64,000 bases of DNA from a phage, in assembly GCA_012441205.1 (NCBI GenBank), contig GCA_012441205.1_4705.1, one strand, 5' to 3'. Below the pieces are notes generated by a model. That model did not search any database. It saw only the letters and a program-made list of their open reading frames with translations, and was not told the origin of the DNA. Every line of letters starts with the position of its first letter. Position 1 is the first letter of the stretch. Below, in pieces: positions 1 through 54,520 of the stretch. Position numbers and translations under genes: made by a program.

Positions 1-605
1 TCTGATTGCTTGCGATAAACCGTCCACGAATCGTATATGCCGTGAAAGTTCAAATGACGTGCATTTAAGTTAACGGTGAATTCTTCCACAGAGGAGAAAT
101 CCGAACGAAGCATCGAATGGAAGGCGTCATCTCCGGTGCAGCCCCCGTATCCCTCACCCTGATAGATCAAAAGCTGATGTGGTTGAATACGCGCGGCAAC
201 CAGCGCAGCTTGTGGTTCGCAGTAAGGCGGCCACGACAGTAAAATAACATCGTACTGTGAAAGATCGATGTTCGTGTAGTCGACCTGCTGAATGTCCTCG
301 ATAAACGGGTGGGGATGTAATTCCGTATCGTAGGCGGTAACGTCCTCAACACCAAGTTTACGTAGTACATAAGTCAGGTAACCTGTCCCACAACCCAAAT
401 CAGCGACACGTCGCCCGTAACAGATATTCGCTAACTGGAGCGCGGTATCCATGGTTAACAACGACCATCCAATGTGCTGGGTACATTCTTCACGCACACT
501 CCATTGTTGATGGTACGTCATGGGTTCTATGATACTAGCAAGCTGCTGGTACGGCAATGGCATTCTGGTTTCGCCTTGCGTGAGTAATGCAATAACGTTG
601 TTCAT
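1..605 (-). CDS. class I SAM-dependent methyltransferase (N-terminal ~200 aa; C-terminus beyond window edge)
   Basis: ATG at 603-605 (minus) with upstream AAGGAAAC; motif I RRVADLGCGTGYLT; later LLSWPPY; frame open to nt 1. ORF-track 167..370 is an out-of-frame fragment of this region. Confidence 0.6.
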   Translation of the reverse strand, partial: MNNVIALLTQGETRMPLPYQQLASIIEPMTYHQQWSVREECTQHIGWSLLTMDTALQLANICYGRRVADLGCGTGYLTYVLRKLGVEDVTAYDTELHPHPFIEDIQQVDYTNIDLSQYDVILLSWPPYCEPQAALVAARIQPHQLLIYQGEGYGGCTGDDAFHSMLRSDFSSVEEFTVNLNARHLNFHGIYDSWTVYRKQS

Positions 606-621
606 TTTGTTTCCTTTTTTA

Positions 622-650
622 TCAGCATAAACCCTCCCGTGCCGGGAGGG
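622..650 (-). terminator. GC hairpin (ccctccc/gggaggg) followed by TTTATGC on minus strand
   Basis: Inverted repeat 632-650 plus gcataaa 625-631; lies just downstream of the 656..1084 gene end. Confidence 0.45.
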
Positions 651-655
651 TACGA

Positions 656-1084
656 TTATTCATTTTCAATAACTTTAAGATTCGGCGTACCGAGTGTTTT
701 CTTGACCAACGCCTCAGCAACGCGTTTCTCGATGAAATCGGTCGCATTGCTTCCGTCTATCGTGCGCATGTCACCACGGAAGTTATTGAAGACCATAAAC
801 AAGTCGCAACCGTCGATAGGTATCGCAAGATCATAACTGACTTGTGATGCCGTGAAATGGACACCGACGACAACGGCGGGAACGAATTTAACCGCTGCGT
901 TATCTCCTTCTTCTCCGGTTCCGAACGGAAGCTCAACCCGATCACCGATAGAAAATTGCGCAACATCACCAATGATGCGAGTTAATGCTGCTCGTTGCAT
1001 GTCGGCGATATTTTCCTTATTCGCGTCGCAAGGTAGGTCTAAGACTTCTTCCAACGTGAAGAATTTACGATCGAACCAGCTCAT
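656..1084 (-). CDS. hypothetical protein
   Basis: 142-aa ORF in minus-strand gene chain, tightly packed with neighbours. Confidence 0.45.
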   Translation of the reverse strand: MSWFDRKFFTLEEVLDLPCDANKENIADMQRAALTRIIGDVAQFSIGDRVELPFGTGEEGDNAAVKFVPAVVVGVHFTASQVSYDLAIPIDGCDLFMVFNNFRGDMRTIDGSNATDFIEKRVAEALVKKTLGTPNLKVIENE

Positions 1085-1085
1085 G

Positions 1086-1619
1086 TTAAGCTCCTTTCTG
1101 TTTGATTGATGATGTTAACCACGATGATCTTACCGTGAAACCCTCGGACTCGTAGAACGCCTGGGCTTCGTCGTTATCAGCACGAACATCCAGGCCGATA
1201 GAATGCCCGCCGCATCGGTAAGCGATGTTACGTGCTTCGTTCATCAAGGCGTGGCCGATCCCGCGTCCACGGTATTCCGGTTTTACAACAATCGATGTAA
1301 CATCATGAATGCCCATATGGCTCTCTGTATTCACTTCCAAGAGGCCTACCGGTATCGAAGCGATGGTGTCGATCATAACGACCAACTTTGCGGTGTCCGG
1401 TAAACGCTTCTCTAATTCTAAGGCATCGTACTCGCGTTTTAAATCGGGGATATTCTCAAACATAAACGTGGTTGCCCATGCCTCTGATTCTACATCATCG
1501 AGAATACGGTACAGCTCACGAATCTGTCGTTTATGTGGGTAAAGGTGTGGATCGGCAGCCGTTGAGGCGATAACGCAATAGAACGGCCGTTCATTAATAA
1601 CTACTGTTTTGATGCTCAT
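1086..1619 (-). CDS. GNAT family N-acetyltransferase
   Basis: RGRGIGHALM...GLDVRADNDEAQAFYESEGF resembles the acetyl-CoA binding motifs of GNAT enzymes; 4-nt start/stop overlap with upstream gene. Confidence 0.7.
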   Translation of the reverse strand: MSIKTVVINERPFYCVIASTAADPHLYPHKRQIRELYRILDDVESEAWATTFMFENIPDLKREYDALELEKRLPDTAKLVVMIDTIASIPVGLLEVNTESHMGIHDVTSIVVKPEYRGRGIGHALMNEARNIAYRCGGHSIGLDVRADNDEAQAFYESEGFTVRSSWLTSSIKQKGA

Positions 1620-3052: not shown

Positions 3053-3530
3053 CTTGTATCCCTCTTTTCTTTCTATGATGCCACCAACGCTGATAAACAG
3101 CTTGCTTCGTCCGTGTTATGCCAAAATGCGCATTAACCCGTTCAGCAATGTGGTACCAATCCTGCGTTTCTTCTAACAATGCATCAACGAAGGCTATGAA
3201 GATCTTAGTATCATCCTCGCTTAACCGCTTGAAGCCATGGCGGTGTGCTATTGTTCGAATACTGTTTGGATCTCTGTTTAAATCGCGTGCGAGCTGTTTG
3301 TAACTTTTGTGCTTACAGTGTAGTCTGATATGTTCTAATTCATCGACGCTGAAACGTTTATGCGGTTTACGGCGTTCGACGTTTAAGTACCTCAACCTTG
3401 ATTCGATTGCACCGTACGTCGTTTCCATGATTTCCGCGATTTCACGGATTTTTAATTTCGGGCGACGATCGTATAGTTTCAGCAACTGCTCATCGTACTT
3501 ACGATTCCATCGTCGTACTGGGGGTTTCAC
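3027..3530 (-). CDS. Myb/SANT-like HTH protein, paralogue 4 of 6
   Basis: RRWNRKYDEQLLKLY...IAEIMETTYGAIESRLRYL. Confidence 0.5.
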   Translation of the reverse strand: MKPPVRRWNRKYDEQLLKLYDRRPKLKIREIAEIMETTYGAIESRLRYLNVERRKPHKRFSVDELEHIRLHCKHKSYKQLARDLNRDPNSIRTIAHRHGFKRLSEDDTKIFIAFVDALLEETQDWYHIAERVNAHFGITRTKQAVYQRWWHHRKKRGIQDGTTSAVA

Positions 3531-3532
3531 AA

Positions 3533-4012
3533 CTAGATTTCTCCTGTTCTACGCGTTTTTAATGCTTGAGTGTAGTAAAGGGTATGAACACCGCTTAACG
3601 TGTAATGGGTGTTAAATTCGTTATTGATGATATTCTGTATTCTCTCCCAGGTTTTCTTCTCTTTTCTAAGAGTATGTATTCGGTGATAGATCATCTCTCG
3701 ACGTTGCGCTTTGCACGCGATAATACCGTAGCGGTAGCAGAGTTTAGCGATCGCATCCACGCTACGATTGAACATTACCGCGGCTTCTTTCACGCTGTGC
3801 GTCTTGAGATAATCGGCTAACATCACGCGTTCTTCGAAACAACAATAGCGGTGACGCGACGTGAGTTTCCAGCGCTTGCGATTACGGTTAATTCGACCTT
3901 GAACCGAACCTTCCGTTCGGCCAAGTCGTACCGCAATATCTTGCATCGGTATACCGTTTCGGTACAGGGTAATCAACATCGCATCTTCTTCGGGTGTCCA
4001 GTCCTTGACCAT
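3533..4012 (-). CDS. Myb/SANT-like HTH protein, paralogue 5 of 6
   Basis: VKDWTPEEDAMLITLYRNGIPMQDIAVRLGRTEGSVQGRINRNRKRW is a near-canonical Myb repeat pattern. Confidence 0.55.
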   Translation of the reverse strand: MVKDWTPEEDAMLITLYRNGIPMQDIAVRLGRTEGSVQGRINRNRKRWKLTSRHRYCCFEERVMLADYLKTHSVKEAAVMFNRSVDAIAKLCYRYGIIACKAQRREMIYHRIHTLRKEKKTWERIQNIINNEFNTHYTLSGVHTLYYTQALKTRRTGEI

Positions 4013-50331: not shown

Positions 50332-50556
50332 TTAGCAATGGTTGTTAGTTGCTTCTATTTCGTCAAGATAAGGTTCTACGTCATCGCCCTCCACGAATTC
50401 GTTGAACCAACAGTCAATAGTGGAAATAACCGGTGACTGGTGTTCACATTTCTTAGATACCTTAAAAGGTACGTTATTATCCATCATACCGAGTTCGGGT
50501 CGAAAACGCCCGAAATGTTTCGCAGTCCAAATGTCTGGGACGATATGGTTGTTCAT
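50332..50556 (-). CDS. RNAP beta-prime N-terminal subunit, exon 3 (joins 52532..51282 + 50931..50917 + 50556..50332)
   Basis: Begins ATG 50554-50556, MNNHIVPDIW...MMDNNVP, aligning with E. coli RpoC QMAVHVPL...MMSTNNILSP immediately after NADFDGD; ORF-track TTG start at 50568 rejected. Confidence 0.6.
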   Translation of the reverse strand: MNNHIVPDIWTAKHFGRFRPELGMMDNNVPFKVSKKCEHQSPVISTIDCWFNEFVEGDDVEPYLDEIEATNNHC

Positions 50557-50916
50557 CAATATCTTCAATACGAATCGCTACTTCGTATCCGCAGCATTAC
50601 CTGCAGCTCCTGGTGTTACCAGGATGTTGAGAGTATATCATGTCCATATTCCAAATGGAACGTAGGACTTCCGCGCTGGATCTCGCTTGAGACCACTTAC
50701 TCGTTGAACGTTCTCCTAAAAGGAGCTTCGCTGCTGATTGGACATTGTTACGTACGGTAGGCGTCCCACTAAAGGGATTTTCATTGAAGCCGCGTACATC
50801 CGTTACCTTGTTTCTACCTTATCGGTTCCTCTTACGAGGCGTAACGGCTTTAGCCTATTCCAGCAATTCACGGAATGCATATTCTCCTTTTCAGGAGATA
50901 AGGCCATGGCTCTGGC
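50557..50916 (-). ncRNA. intron 2 (group I-like, ORF-less, 360 nt), paralogue of intron 1
   Basis: 5' exon ends in U, intron ends in G; conserved blocks and covarying hairpins shared with 50932-51281; separates micro-exon from exon 3. Confidence 0.6.
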
Positions 50917-50931
50917 ATCACCGTCAAAGTC
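50917..50931 (-). CDS. RNAP beta-prime micro-exon encoding catalytic DFDGD
   Basis: Minus-strand gactttgacggtgat = D-F-D-G-D, in frame with flanking exons under the proposed junctions. Confidence 0.65.
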
Positions 50932-51281
50932 CACGTATCTTCAGTATGAATCGCTACTTCATACCCGCAGCATTACCTGCAGCTCCTGGTGTTACCAGGA
51001 CGGAGAGATCATCTCATCACCCACGAAGGGTGTTCCGCGCTACCCTCAGCGAATTCGAGGGACATGATCGTTGAACCTTCCACCGATGATCGATGGCTAG
51101 GCTGCTGATTGGACATTGTGCGTTGGGGTGGCATCCTGGTTCAGGACTGTCATTGAAGCCTCCCAACATCCACTCACTTATTTCCGCCTCATCGGCTCCC
51201 ACAAGGGCAGAGTGGCTTTAGCCCGTCTCAGCAATTCACGGAATTCAAGCTCTTCCTTTCGGAAGGCAGGGCCTCATTTGA
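50932..51281 (-). ncRNA. intron 1 (group I-like, ORF-less, 350 nt)
   Basis: Begins right after codon GCU (Ala of ...GYNA) at 51282; ends in G before the micro-exon; paralogous to intron 2. Confidence 0.6.
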
Positions 51282-52532
51282 AGCGTTGTATCCCTTAAGG
51301 ATCATCACGCTTAACCCGATGGTGTTATCCTGCGGATCGCGTTTAACCTTGGTGATTTCAAGACATTGGTTACTGCTTCGGTCAAGTGATGGGTTTCGAA
51401 CAAAGCCACACACAATCCCATCGAACGGTGTATCAGCAATAAGCTCATCGTGCAGCTCGCTCATCATTGGATGATAATTACGGACATGTTCCGCAACGAA
51501 CGCACGTGCTGCTCTTGGCGAATAACCACGATGGAATAACTTGGATTGGATATGTTCTTTATTGGTTAAAGTAAATGGTGCGTATGGGAAATGCAGATGA
51601 TAATAACGATGGTTTGCTGTTATCGAACTGATTACGGTACGCGTGGTGAATGGATGTAATGTACCTAATATGTTTTTACGTGTGATACCTTTCTTCTTAC
51701 CAATGAACTCATCGAAAATTGCTGCGTGGTATTGCAGTAGCTTCAATTGTACTTTCGCCATCCAGTTTTCTTTCTTTCTGGCGCTCAAAGGTGTTGTTGG
51801 GTGATAGATACTATTCAACGTACCGATAGCATCGATCGCACCTTCCATTTTGCTATCTGCATAACGACCGGTTGGCGTATTCTCGATAACGAACATCATG
51901 GCCGCAGGAAAGCTGATATACTGACTGAAGAACTTATCACGATGGATACGGATGAATTCTCGTAGCGTGTCAACTTTCTCCGTGTTCTTCGGTCCACGTA
52001 ACGTAGGTCCTTTATACAAGATCTCCATGATGCGATCGAAGTTCTGTATAAAGCTATTTACGCCACGTCGTATCCCGAATACATCGAATTGCTGCTCCAG
52101 ATAGTTCTTGAGTTCGATGGGTCGTTTTACATTTGGACGGTAACTGGCATCAATGAGCCACGTCATCGTTTCAAAGCTTTTGATATTCAACTCGCTTGCC
52201 AGCACGAGATGGACCAACGGGTTAATGAACGCATCAATTCCTTCAGGAACACGCGCCCAAACCGTCGAACGAATCTCTTGTTCTGCTGGATAGGTTACAA
52301 CCGTTTTACAGTTCGGACACACCGTACCGAGCAGCTCACCACGATTGTAGAAACCACAACCACATTGTGGTGTGATATCCAACGTATCGCTGGAGTAAAC
52401 ACGGGTGATAAAACTGTTTAATTTCTTCTTCTCTTCGACGACTTTTGTATCGTAATCATTCAACAAAATCGGCGTGAAAGGAAGTTCTGCGAGCTGTCTA
52501 TCGAAACTCACGATATCGAGCATGATGGCCAT
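51282..52532 (-). CDS. RNAP beta-prime N-terminal subunit, exon 1
   Basis: Zinc ribbon CGCGFYNRGELLGTVCPNC; GKKKGITRKNILGTLHPFTTRTV (E. coli [23 protein letters not shown]); RNPSLDRSSNQCLE (NRAPTLHRLGIQAFE); LSVMILKGYNA (LHPLVCAAYNA). The ORF-track tail to 51228 is intron read-through. Confidence 0.7.
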
Positions 52533-52624: not shown

Positions 52625-54520
52625 TTAGAACAGGTTGAATGCCCCACCCATGTTGTTAACGCCAACATTCGGACGATCGCTACGTGCGTAGATGTTACCG
52701 GAGATGTTACCCAGACCACGAGCACGTGCTGCCATGTTACCACGAACAGCGGTACCTGCCAGATGCTGGATGTTCTCAGGACGGATGGTGAAGCCAGCAT
52801 CAGCAGCGGCCTCGATCAGCGCCTGCAGTGCTAACGGATCGAAGTCGTAACGCATTGCCCAGCCGGTTTGTTCCCAGCTACCAGACAGAACACGATCAAT
52901 GATTTCGTGACGAGCGACAACACGCTGAGACATCGTCATATCGGTACGGTCGAAGCTGTCTTCCCAAGCTTCTACGGTATCCGGGTTAGTGATGTTCATC
53001 ATGTACAGATCGTCCATATCACGAATATCGTGACGGTGACCATCCTGGTGGTTATAATGACCCAGCGGGATACGGTTACCGGTAGCGTAGACCAGTGGTG
53101 CGCCGTACTGATATTTCTTGCTGAAGCAACCCAGGGTAGTATCATCGAAGGCACGGAAGAGTGCTTTGTAACCTTCGGAGATTTCCCGGACTTCACCTTC
53201 AACTTTGCCCGTATAGATCTTCTCAGCCGCCGGGATCATACGCAGCAGCCAGCTGTATTCGCCTTCTTCCGGTACGTCGATAGAAATCAGCAGAGACGGA
53301 TACAGTACCTGTTGCAGGAACTTGTAAATCTGCTCGTTGGTTTGAGTAGACAGATCCAGCGGTGCGGTAACTTCCGGATCCAGTACCATCGCCAGAGCAC
53401 CCGGGTTATGCGGACCAATACCACGAGCAGCGTTGCTGATTAAAGACTGTGCCCACGCCATACCGCTGTTCAGCGTAGCGATGGTGCCAATCAGACCCAA
53501 CACGAAAGTGTTCGGCGTGAACGCATCCAGCTCCAGCGGGTAAGCGCTGGTCATCACGTAACGCGGTTGGTATTGTACAGTCGGCGGTACCGGATAACCG
53601 TTAACCAGAACAGGGCCTTGGTTGAAGGTCGGGTTCTGCGGGCTGTAGGTCAGGTCAATGTAACCGGTGGTTGCGACCAGACGCTGCTGACTATCGTAAT
53701 CGCTCATCGCTTGACGGATGCGGTTAGAGATAGTTACAGTGATGTCAGAACGCACAGGGTTACCAACAATATCGCTGTCCTGCATACCGCTGGTGTTGTA
53801 CTGAACGCTGCTGATTGGCTGATCGCTTGCCATCATGCCCAGGTTGAACTGCGGCAGACCCAGTTTATCGCCGAGACGGATTTCGATCGCGGTTTGGATT
53901 GCGTTATCTGCAGCAGACAGCAGGGTGGTTGCCAGATGCGCAGATTCAGCGGTGATTTCATTGGTCACCACAGCCAGACCAGCGATACGAGCAGTACCAT
54001 TAGACTTACCACCGATAGCTGCATACATTGCCGCCATGACTTCGTTGATGAACGTACCGTTCAGGTTATCAACCCAGGTACGCGGCACCAGAATGTTACC
54101 ATGCGGGCCTTGTTCTTCACGACGCGGCAGCGGAGCCAAACCGGCAACCAGTGGAAGCACATAACCGAAGAAGTGGTTATGGTCACCAACTTTTGCACCG
54201 CTCATAACAACCAGGGTCGGATACGGTACACTGTATTGGTTAGGATCGACGGTCACCATGATGAAGTCGTCTTTGAATCCTTTATCTTCCAGTTCTTTTT
54301 CCATCAGACGACGGAGATTCAGTACCTGCTCGGAGCCAGTATTACGGCTAATACGACGGCTCAGTGTACGGTTGATCGTACGCATCGTATGAGTTACTTT
54401 AGGCTGGCCAGCAAAATCTGCAGCGGTTTCCAGCGCCTCATCAGCACGTTGTGCGGTGCGGGTTTCAGCTGCACGAATTTCTACATTATCGTTACCGTTA
54501 TTACGTACGTCTAAGCCCAT
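52625..54520 (-). CDS. candidate phage-nucleus shell protein (chimallin-like); otherwise abundant early protein of unknown function
   Basis: 631 aa; own TATATTAC promoter-like motif 70 bp upstream and own terminator; immediately upstream of the beta-prime N-terminal gene; no motif-level confirmation. Confidence 0.4.
   Translation of the reverse strand: MGLDVRNNGNDNVEIRAAETRTAQRADEALETAADFAGQPKVTHTMRTINRTLSRRISRNTGSEQVLNLRRLMEKELEDKGFKDDFIMVTVDPNQYSVPYPTLVVMSGAKVGDHNHFFGYVLPLVAGLAPLPRREEQGPHGNILVPRTWVDNLNGTFINEVMAAMYAAIGGKSNGTARIAGLAVVTNEITAESAHLATTLLSAADNAIQTAIEIRLGDKLGLPQFNLGMMASDQPISSVQYNTSGMQDSDIVGNPVRSDITVTISNRIRQAMSDYDSQQRLVATTGYIDLTYSPQNPTFNQGPVLVNGYPVPPTVQYQPRYVMTSAYPLELDAFTPNTFVLGLIGTIATLNSGMAWAQSLISNAARGIGPHNPGALAMVLDPEVTAPLDLSTQTNEQIYKFLQQVLYPSLLISIDVPEEGEYSWLLRMIPAAEKIYTGKVEGEVREISEGYKALFRAFDDTTLGCFSKKYQYGAPLVYATGNRIPLGHYNHQDGHRHDIRDMDDLYMMNITNPDTVEAWEDSFDRTDMTMSQRVVARHEIIDRVLSGSWEQTGWAMRYDFDPLALQALIEAAADAGFTIRPENIQHLAGTAVRGNMAARARGLGNISGNIYARSDRPNVGVNNMGGAFNLF

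Follow-up and report, generated by a model that had tools for sequence, protein, structure and literature searches.

We have analyzed two related sequence units at positions 50557-51281 of a 64,000-nucleotide stretch of phage DNA (contig GCA_012441205.1_4705.1 of GenBank assembly GCA_012441205.1), referred to here as the window. The phage is related to Escherichia phage Goslar, one of the nucleus-forming jumbo phages, and the matched parts of the two are 89% identical in DNA. The units are very probably two paralogous group I self-splicing introns, I1 and I2, on the minus strand, which lie around a micro-exon of 18 nucleotides (nt) in the gene for the beta' N-terminal subunit of the non-virion RNA polymerase (nvRNAP). 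The peptide encoded by this micro-exon, DFDGDA, is the Mg-binding aspartate triad of beta' (the catalytic DFDGD motif). The parts of the gene are listed below.

51282-52532, minus strand: exon 1 of the nvRNAP beta' N-terminal subunit gene, 417 codons, ending ...LKGYNA, last codon GCT
50932-51281, minus strand: intron I1, 350 nt, after the GCT of YNA, ending ...ACGTG with terminal G at 50932
50914-50931, minus strand: micro-exon, 18 nt, GACTTTGACGGTGATGCC, read GAC TTT GAC GGT GAT GCC, encoding DFDGDA
50557-50913, minus strand: intron I2, 357 nt, after the GCC of DGDA, ending ...ATATTG with terminal G at 50557
50332-50556, minus strand: exon 3, 74 codons and a stop codon, MNNHIVPDIW...NNHC
Predicted spliced protein: junction-spanning peptide stretches YNADFDGDAMNNH and GYNADFDGDAMNNHIVPDIWTAK

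Evidence for a polymerase gene in three exons

Joining 52532-51282, 50931-50914 and 50556-50332 restores the reading frame and yields a 497-amino-acid (aa) protein. This product matches the corresponding nvRNAP subunit of phiKZ, gp55 (7OGP_A, chain A of PDB 7OGP), with an E-value of 1e-74, exon 1 being part of the alignment. The alignment of the 497-aa product is gapless over both junctions (...LKGYNADFDGDAMNNHIVPD in the window, ...LKAPNADFDGDQLNLTLMPD in phiKZ), with NADFDGDAMN of the window placed against NADFDGDQLN of phiKZ. Uninterrupted homologues of the junction stretch were found by tblastn in 109 phage records, many of them from chimalliviruses. Given the gapless phiKZ alignment and these uninterrupted homologues, we therefore read the units as two introns flanking a micro-exon. 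The micro-exon is invariant in all 11 other contigs that carry the same I1 and I2 arrangement (window-type contigs).

A mechanical open reading frame (ORF) call gives a different picture of the same DNA. The ORF at 51228-52532 (434 aa), which carries a beta' zinc-finger-like motif (CGCG...CPNC), runs 17 codons past exon 1 into I1, and its exact read-through product is present on many Goslar-like contigs of about 235-245 kb. The exact 74-aa product of exon 3 is found on Goslar-like contigs of every intron configuration; in exact look-ups this ATG form was matched and the 78-aa TTG-start form of the exon 3 ORF was not.

Two diverged copies of one structured unit

The two units (350 and 357 nt) are 64% identical over 366 aligned columns. 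The initial annotation had described them as related blocks with a period of about 370 nt, and a repeat search of the window recovered these with spacings of 367-376 nt: D1 (50560-50641 and 50936-51017, 82 nt, 88% identity), D2 (50846-50905 and 51214-51273, 60 nt, 75%), D3 (50725-50748 and 51096-51119, 24 nt, 92%) and the further blocks D4 and D7. Tandem Repeats Finder reported no repeat in the region, the copies having diverged too far for it. A profile made from their alignment matched only these two places in the 64-kb window, with E-values of 1e-120 and 1e-102, so that their similarity is far beyond chance. The outer limits of the region are exact intron ends, 50557 being the 3' end of I2 and 51281 the 5' end of I1. 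The functional strand of both units is the minus strand, as it is for the flanking genes; all substantial ORFs surrounding the units lie on that strand, and one of them, 52625-54520, encodes chimallin. A scan for tRNA and tmRNA was negative.

The same annotation had called the region a tandem duplication. There are indeed two related copies, but the term is loose, as the copies occupy different insertion sites, have different P1 and P2 modules and are separated by an 18-nt coding micro-exon. Nor can the units be considered apart from splicing, as had been proposed, since the 18 nt between them are the coding exon for DFDGDA.

Group I identity of the units

In a local E-value scan both units matched RF00028, the group I catalytic intron family: the I1 region at 50985-51292 (minus strand, 30.1 bits, E 2.1e-5) and the I2 region at 50609-50970 (minus strand, 30.4 bits, E 1.6e-5). 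Both alignments run end to end over model positions 1-253. For the whole window the E-values are 1e-3 (I1) and 7e-4 (I2), and these are the only matches in the window with E < 0.01. A custom covariance model, which covers the core only, without the P9.1/P9.2 tail and without the P7 pseudoknot, scored I1 at 298.6 bits and I2 at 363 bits.

Each intron contains P1 to P9, including the P7 pseudoknot, together with extra P5, P7.1, P9.1 and P9.2 hairpins. When I1, I2 and their Goslar relative, intron B (described below), were folded together with RNAalifold, 88 pairs were obtained, 28 of which show compensatory changes, with the helices in group I order: P2, P3, P4, P5 with a two-branch extension, P6, a P7-P3' hairpin, P8, P9, P9.1 and P9.2. 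Folds of the single sequences have the same architecture as the consensus, with z-scores of -2.6 (I1) and -3.05 (I2). The initial annotation had noticed that the stems vary and stay paired while loops and junctions are fixed, and the consensus fold bears this out; its invariant blocks turn out to be the P3/J3-4/P4, P4'/J and P9/P9.1 strands. Core and 3' elements are placed as follows.

51228-51243, minus strand: I1 core, P3-5'/J3-4/P4-5', UUCCGUG AAU UGCUGA (initially annotated as block 51230-51245)
50860-50875, minus strand: I2 core, P3-5'/J3-4/P4-5' (initially annotated as block 50861-50876)
51006-51069, minus strand: I1 from P7-5' through P7.1, P3-3' and P8 to P7-3'; P7-5' at 51063-51069, GAUCAU; P7-3' at 51006-51012, AUGAUC
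50630-50702, minus strand: I2 from P7-5' through P7.1, P3-3' and P8 to P7-3'; P7-5' at 50696-50702, GAGUA; P7-3' at 50630-50636, UACUC
50944-50999, minus strand: I1 3' module, P9, P9.1 and P9.2 hairpins, 90-100% identical to the I2 module
50568-50623, minus strand: I2 3' module, P9, P9.1 and P9.2 hairpins, including the initially annotated block 50589-50624

Covariation was assessed in a model-based alignment of 50 sequences (A4) with 500 shuffles and slid controls; it was preferred to a MAFFT alignment of 19 copies (A2), which is one column off in one region. In this alignment 95.8% of cells are paired, against 70.5% in shuffles, and both sides change in 64 of the 79 pairs. The covariation score is 0.41, against 0.107 in shuffles, none of the 500 shuffles reaching the observed value, and 0.03-0.07 in the slid controls. 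The P7 pseudoknot offers a cleaner test because it is not part of the covariance model. This helix is 96.7% paired across 48 sequences, without any one-sided change at its two variable pairs (CG 26, UA 9, GC 8 and AU 2 at one; UA 37 and CG 10 at the other). The strands themselves differ between copies: GAUCAU with AUGAUC in I1, GAGUA with UACUC in I2 and GAAUAC with GUAUUC in Goslar B. One covarying hairpin (helix 16) lies between P7 and P3', the place where extra P7.1/P7.2 hairpins are a trait of subgroup IA. The proposal that the units belong to a functional RNA family and do not stem from a recent DNA duplication agrees with this strong covariation and with the old, mosaic character of copies that are 64% identical.

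Neither I1 nor I2 contains an endonuclease ORF, and no sense-strand ORF is present in either intron. With the core covariance model, dozens of related introns were recovered from IMG/VR phage contigs, and a single contig often has several of them. A 19-mer search for the I1-type core elsewhere gave no match in IMG/VR and three chance matches in the JGI data. Among isolated phages, I1-type matches are limited to Goslar B (72%) and 48 nt of the tail in 201phi2-1; complete E. coli genomes gave no match.

Splice sites and the P1 helix

Group I introns almost always have a U.G pair at the 5' splice site, and work on the Tetrahymena ribozyme showed that a C-G pair in its place slows the first splicing step. 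All three introns (I1, I2 and Goslar B) have a P1 hairpin of 14 nt with a common geometry (the slash marks the splice site here and insertion sites below).

51271-51284, minus strand: P1 of I1, GCU/UC-AAAU-GAGGC, U.G wobble at the 5' splice site, from sequence and also predicted in the single-sequence fold
50903-50916, minus strand: P1 of I2, GCC/A-GAGCCA-UGGC, C-G pair at the 5' splice site, from sequence and fold
Goslar intron B: P1, GCU/U-AAUCAU-AGGC

The P1 pairs covary in the 50-sequence alignment (helix 1), where the splice-site pair is UG in 29 sequences and CG in 10, the latter consistent with I2 copies. The expected wobble is thus present in I1 and absent from I2, in which the C-G pair occurs in 11 of 11 window-type contigs (the micro-exon end GCC is invariant). 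The 5' splice position of I2 is fixed by homology with Goslar B and by alleles in which the site is empty. Shifting the P1 of I2 to obtain a U.G pair, with splicing after GAU or GGU, was rejected, as no 3' site ending in G then restores the frame. The C-G pair is a real anomaly; given an essential polymerase and a widespread allele, the phage must tolerate it in vivo. Both introns end in G (...ACGUG in I1, ...AUAUUG in I2), as do the related introns B, X and A of other Goslar-like genomes and the phiKZ-type intron.

Several of these observations weigh against the assignment. At gathering thresholds no Rfam family is found in the window, both units scoring 30 bits on RF00028, under its gathering score of 50. 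Pair counts in the large alignment are inflated, as it was fitted to the model structure; the P7 test and the single-sequence folds are free of this bias. P1 is short, with only three exon nucleotides paired, and I2 has C-G where the U.G wobble is conserved. No convincing P10 pairing was found for the two introns; a candidate in I1, UUUGA with UCAAA at +4 to +8, may be chance. Finally, splicing in this phage is what we infer from the sequence.

Proposed mechanism

Membership of the group I family implies that each intron would be removed by guanosine-initiated, two-step self-splicing. A pre-mRNA read from 52532 down to 50332 would contain both introns, each folding separately into a ribozyme. 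Free guanosine would attack the 5' splice site held in P1, after the GCU of YNA for I1 and after the GCC of DGDA for I2, and the freed 5' exon would then attack the bond that follows the intron's terminal G (50932 in I1, 50557 in I2). With both introns out, the mRNA would consist of exon 1, micro-exon and exon 3 and encode the 497-aa protein with an intact NADFDGD catalytic loop. The unspliced message would give only the 434-aa protein, which lacks the aspartate triad.

Alternative readings

We see little likelihood that the pair is removed as a composite "tandem twintron", from the 5' site of I1 to the 3' site of I2, whether as main or as regulated side route; the product would read YNA/MNNH and lack the catalytic aspartates. 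Skipping of the 18-nt micro-exon would stay in frame, the 3' modules of I1 and I2 are nearly identical, and there are precedents: exon skipping among three similar group I introns is reported for phage Twort (Landthaler and Shub 1999, cited in PMC3073962), and in Ophiostoma mitochondria tandem group I modules are reported to splice as one unit (PMC12308204). Against this, DFDGDA is needed for polymerase catalysis, is invariant in 11 genomes and is required by the gapless phiKZ alignment. The P1 hairpins also differ, each guide pairing with its own site over 4-5 bp and with the other site over only 3 bp. In Goslar and in a contig with three introns (L103, below) the micro-exons are 13 nt long, so that skipping would shift the frame. 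A twintron has nested modules, or modules with no exon between them, and here the 18 nt between the modules encode DFDGDA. Composite removal as the main route is unlikely; a minor exon-skipping product is possible, given the Twort precedent and the in-frame length of the micro-exon.

Two further readings have a very slim chance of being correct. In one, the units would be a free-standing tandem non-coding RNA gene or a regulatory leader between two protein genes, as might be suggested by the lack of an Rfam family at gathering score and by automated calls and the Goslar GenBank record, which treat the flanks as separate hypothetical proteins. The group I matches, the fold and the P7 covariation speak against it, as does the finding that the 18-nt spacer and the ORFs on either side encode successive parts of a single conserved protein, whose coding sequence is uninterrupted at each site in related genomes. 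In the other, equally improbable, the repeat would be a recent functionless DNA duplication, or one copy would be decayed and no longer splice. The copies are adjacent and their 3' modules are 90-100% identical, but overall identity is 64% and the peripheral helices, 27-64% identical, are still paired. Moreover, the two copies interrupt the gene at different codons, so that a working polymerase requires the removal of both, and at least 11 independent contigs, from metagenomes and isolates, retain the I1 and I2 arrangement with polymorphisms.

That the plus-strand ORFs (50440-50760 and 50738-51067) are real genes and the repeat a duplicated protein is the least credible reading of all: the first of them (106 aa) is open in Goslar too, but neither has a Pfam match, all neighbouring genes are on the minus strand, 50738-51067 spans a junction absent from Goslar, and the intron-antisense part of the 106-aa ORF differs from Goslar at 31 positions spread 8/12/11 over the codon positions, with 19 codons changed non-synonymously and 8 synonymously. 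The 106-aa frame is probably kept open by conservation at the RNA level. The absence of Pfam matches and of a coding-type substitution pattern supports the initial view that no real ORF crosses the units. On the evidence given here we reject the free-standing RNA gene, the functionless duplication and plus-strand coding.

Natural alleles at a proposed insertion hot spot

Exact-protein look-ups identified about 20 Goslar-like contigs (234-245 kb), some from gut metagenomes and others from enterobacterial isolate assemblies. Between fixed exon anchors the locus ranges from 418 to 1847 nt. Four insertion sites lie within 27 nt of coding sequence, and each Goslar-like genome has one to three introns.

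Site a, GGG T/AT: intron X
Site b, GCT/GAC: I1
Site c, GAY TT/C: intron A, with or without an HNH gene
Site d, GCN/ATG: I2, or B in Goslar

The following configurations were found.

X only: L133, L139 and L141
A only: L137
X and A: L132
A with endonuclease gene: L135, L136 and L140
X and A with endonuclease gene: L134
X, A and B: L103, three introns
A with endonuclease gene, and B: Goslar
I1 and I2: the window and 11 contigs

The I1 site is empty in L137, L135 and Goslar, which read ..TAT AAT GCC GAC TT.. without interruption, and the I2 site is empty (GAC GCN ATG AAC) in L132-L137. Because each site is empty in some genome, the intron boundaries are fixed to the nucleotide. No intron-free allele was found among the Goslar-like genomes, and a degenerate 44-nt pattern for it gave no match in IMG/VR or in JGI metagenomes; the nearest uninterrupted homologue in the protein database has 65% identity. 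In phiKZ-type phages a related intron, which scores 80 bits on RF00028, occupies a fifth site, AAT/GCG.

Some individual genomes deserve mention. In L103 (IMGVR_UViG_3300045988_173921, about 406-1530, minus strand) introns X, A and B lie within 27 coding nt and leave two 13-nt micro-exons, ATAATGCAGATTT and CGACGGTGACGCT. Goslar (L001, MK327938) has an unannotated intron, B, at 3258-3612 on the minus strand, 13 nt downstream of the annotated one; its beta' gene is recorded as two "hypothetical protein" CDSs and the 13-nt exon CGACGGTGACGCT (3613-3625) was missed. The HNH genes found in the same place within intron A, a 336-aa NUMOD1/HNH gene in Goslar (L001 3646-4656, minus strand) and a 320-aa gene of the L135 type (2018-2980), are only 28% identical; the cargo therefore turns over independently of the ribozyme.

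Goslar-like contigs (about 235-245 kb) and their proteins (L122, L123 and cluster members P0072-P0081) are also present in NCBI assemblies of isolates that bear the labels Salmonella enterica, E. coli, Shigella and Enterobacter hormaechei, which suggests that the phage is often co-sequenced with enterobacterial isolates, through a carrier state or contamination. Elsewhere in IMG/VR, contigs L051/L064, L014, L025, L037, L023 and L060/L061 hold 3-5 related group I introns within 1-2 kb. As such clusters occur on unrelated phage contigs, multi-intron genes look common in uncultured phages.

History of the intron pair

Different parts of the introns have different affinities. I2 and Goslar B are orthologues (83.5% identity), with 86-100% identity in the core. 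In the P2 module, I1 is 96% identical to Goslar B and I2 57%. In P9 and the tail, I1 and I2 share 90-100% identity with each other and 77-80% with B. The peripheral helices of I1 and I2, at 27-64% identity, remain paired through compensatory changes. On these sequence comparisons I1 and I2 are old mosaic paralogues and not the outcome of a recent duplication.

I1 and Goslar B have in common a 5' exon ending ..ACGCT and the P1 geometry GCU/U...(G)AGGC. We infer that I1 is a B-type intron that moved to a look-alike site 18 nt upstream, behind ..ACGCU. The YNADFDGDA codons would then be an insertion hot spot in this phage group, at which a copy of the I2/B lineage settled 18 nt upstream, and the copies would later have exchanged modules by recombination.

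Two observations concern the 3' end. Among window-type contigs the P9.2 hairpins of both introns (50944-50964 in I1, 50568-50588 in I2) occur in two states, GUAUGAA..UUCAUAC and AUACGAA..UUCGUAU, separated by four linked, fully compensated changes. The switching looks like gene conversion between the neighbouring introns. The 3' tail of I1 (P9.2 region) is 83% identical over 48 nt to Pseudomonas phage 201phi2-1 (EU197055, 197585-197632) within an RNAP beta subunit gene, and the tail module may be shared among chimallivirus introns.

Neither intron holds an endonuclease gene, and tblastn with two intron-A endonucleases found no homologue in the 64-kb window. I1 and I2 are for these reasons either passengers spread by recombination, or kept since imprecise loss would destroy the active site. 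As a tentative and rather doubtful extension, these elements can be joined in one account, in which the YNADFDGDA codons are an intron battleground, I1 arose by a move of an I2/B-type intron, the P1 of I2 was remodelled, and the ORF-less pair shields the gene from the HNH endonucleases of intron A. At least four sites in 27 nt, a fifth in phiKZ-type phages, and up to three introns with 13-18-nt micro-exons would reflect this competition. The change in the P1 of I2, from U.G to C-G with a flipped neighbouring pair, would let tandem ribozymes avoid each other's splice sites. I1 and I2 would break up the HNH recognition site of the competing intron A and so protect the genome in co-infection. The separation of transcription and translation in the phage nucleus may make such pile-ups tolerable.

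Significance and comparison with known systems

Group I introns in this gene are of a known kind; the arrangement in the window is unusually tight. The notable features are an active site on a micro-exon, high polymorphism among close genomes, the C-G pair of I2 and the failure of annotation. Both the Goslar record and metagenome gene calls wrongly present the polymerase gene as separate hypothetical proteins, and because this intron sub-type scores under the Rfam threshold, pipelines miss both the introns and the 13-18-nt exons. An essential active site would lie on an exon shorter than most primers and depend on two adjacent ribozymes. With at least eight intron configurations among closely related genomes, the spot is a natural system for intron gain, loss and recombination, for exon skipping between tandem introns, for the in vivo tolerance of a C-G splice-site pair, and for intron shielding against a rival's homing endonuclease, a theme opened by work on PhiPA3 and phiKZ.

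Published group I introns in related phages include those in phiKZ gp55 and gp180 and in 201phi2-1 gp273/274, the virion RNA polymerase (vRNAP) beta subunit (PMC11512511). One of them is in phiKZ gene 55 (gp55/gp56/56.1), the same host gene with the same catalytic motif, in which the phiKZ-type intron lies after the AAT of NADFDGD; the spliced gp55 protein is in PDB 7OGP. The phiKZ-type and window introns have a common core (AAUUGCUGG..., AAUCAGCAGC and GGUUCAACGA) and a similar 3' tail (GGGUAUGG...CCAUACUGAAC). The phiKZ-type phages have only one intron, which contains a short ORF annotated as an HNH remnant and reaches 80 bits on RF00028; the window has two ORF-less introns at other codons, which score 30 bits and have an 18-nt exon between them.

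In phage Twort, three similar group I introns interrupt one phage protein gene (Landthaler and Shub 1999, summarised in PMC3073962). Both cases have several similar introns in one gene and a risk of exon skipping; host gene and phage group differ, and the middle exon of the window is 18 nt long and encodes an active site. Tandem group I modules are also known from fungal mitochondria, as in Ophiostoma cob-201 (two IB modules 18 nt apart) and cox3-640 (PMC12308204). There too, two adjacent modules are separated by only a very short stretch that can be read as a micro-exon, but they are organellar, usually carry LAGLIDADG ORFs and in some cases splice as one unit, whereas the 18 nt of the window are unambiguously coding and conserved.

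PhiPA3 gp210 is an intron-encoded HNH endonuclease in an RNAP subunit gene (PMC11620839), and as in the window, a chimallivirus RNA polymerase gene there contains a group I intron. In relatives of the window phage an HNH gene lies within the neighbouring intron A, whereas I1 and I2 are without one. The closest sequenced isolate is Goslar (MK327938, Goslar_00185-00188), in which this gene likewise has two introns with a micro-exon between them. Of these, B is orthologous to I2; the upstream intron, A, has an unrelated sequence, carries an HNH/NUMOD1 ORF and is inserted after GAC TT, which makes the micro-exon 13 nt long. Only intron A is annotated in Goslar, and the CDS is not joined.

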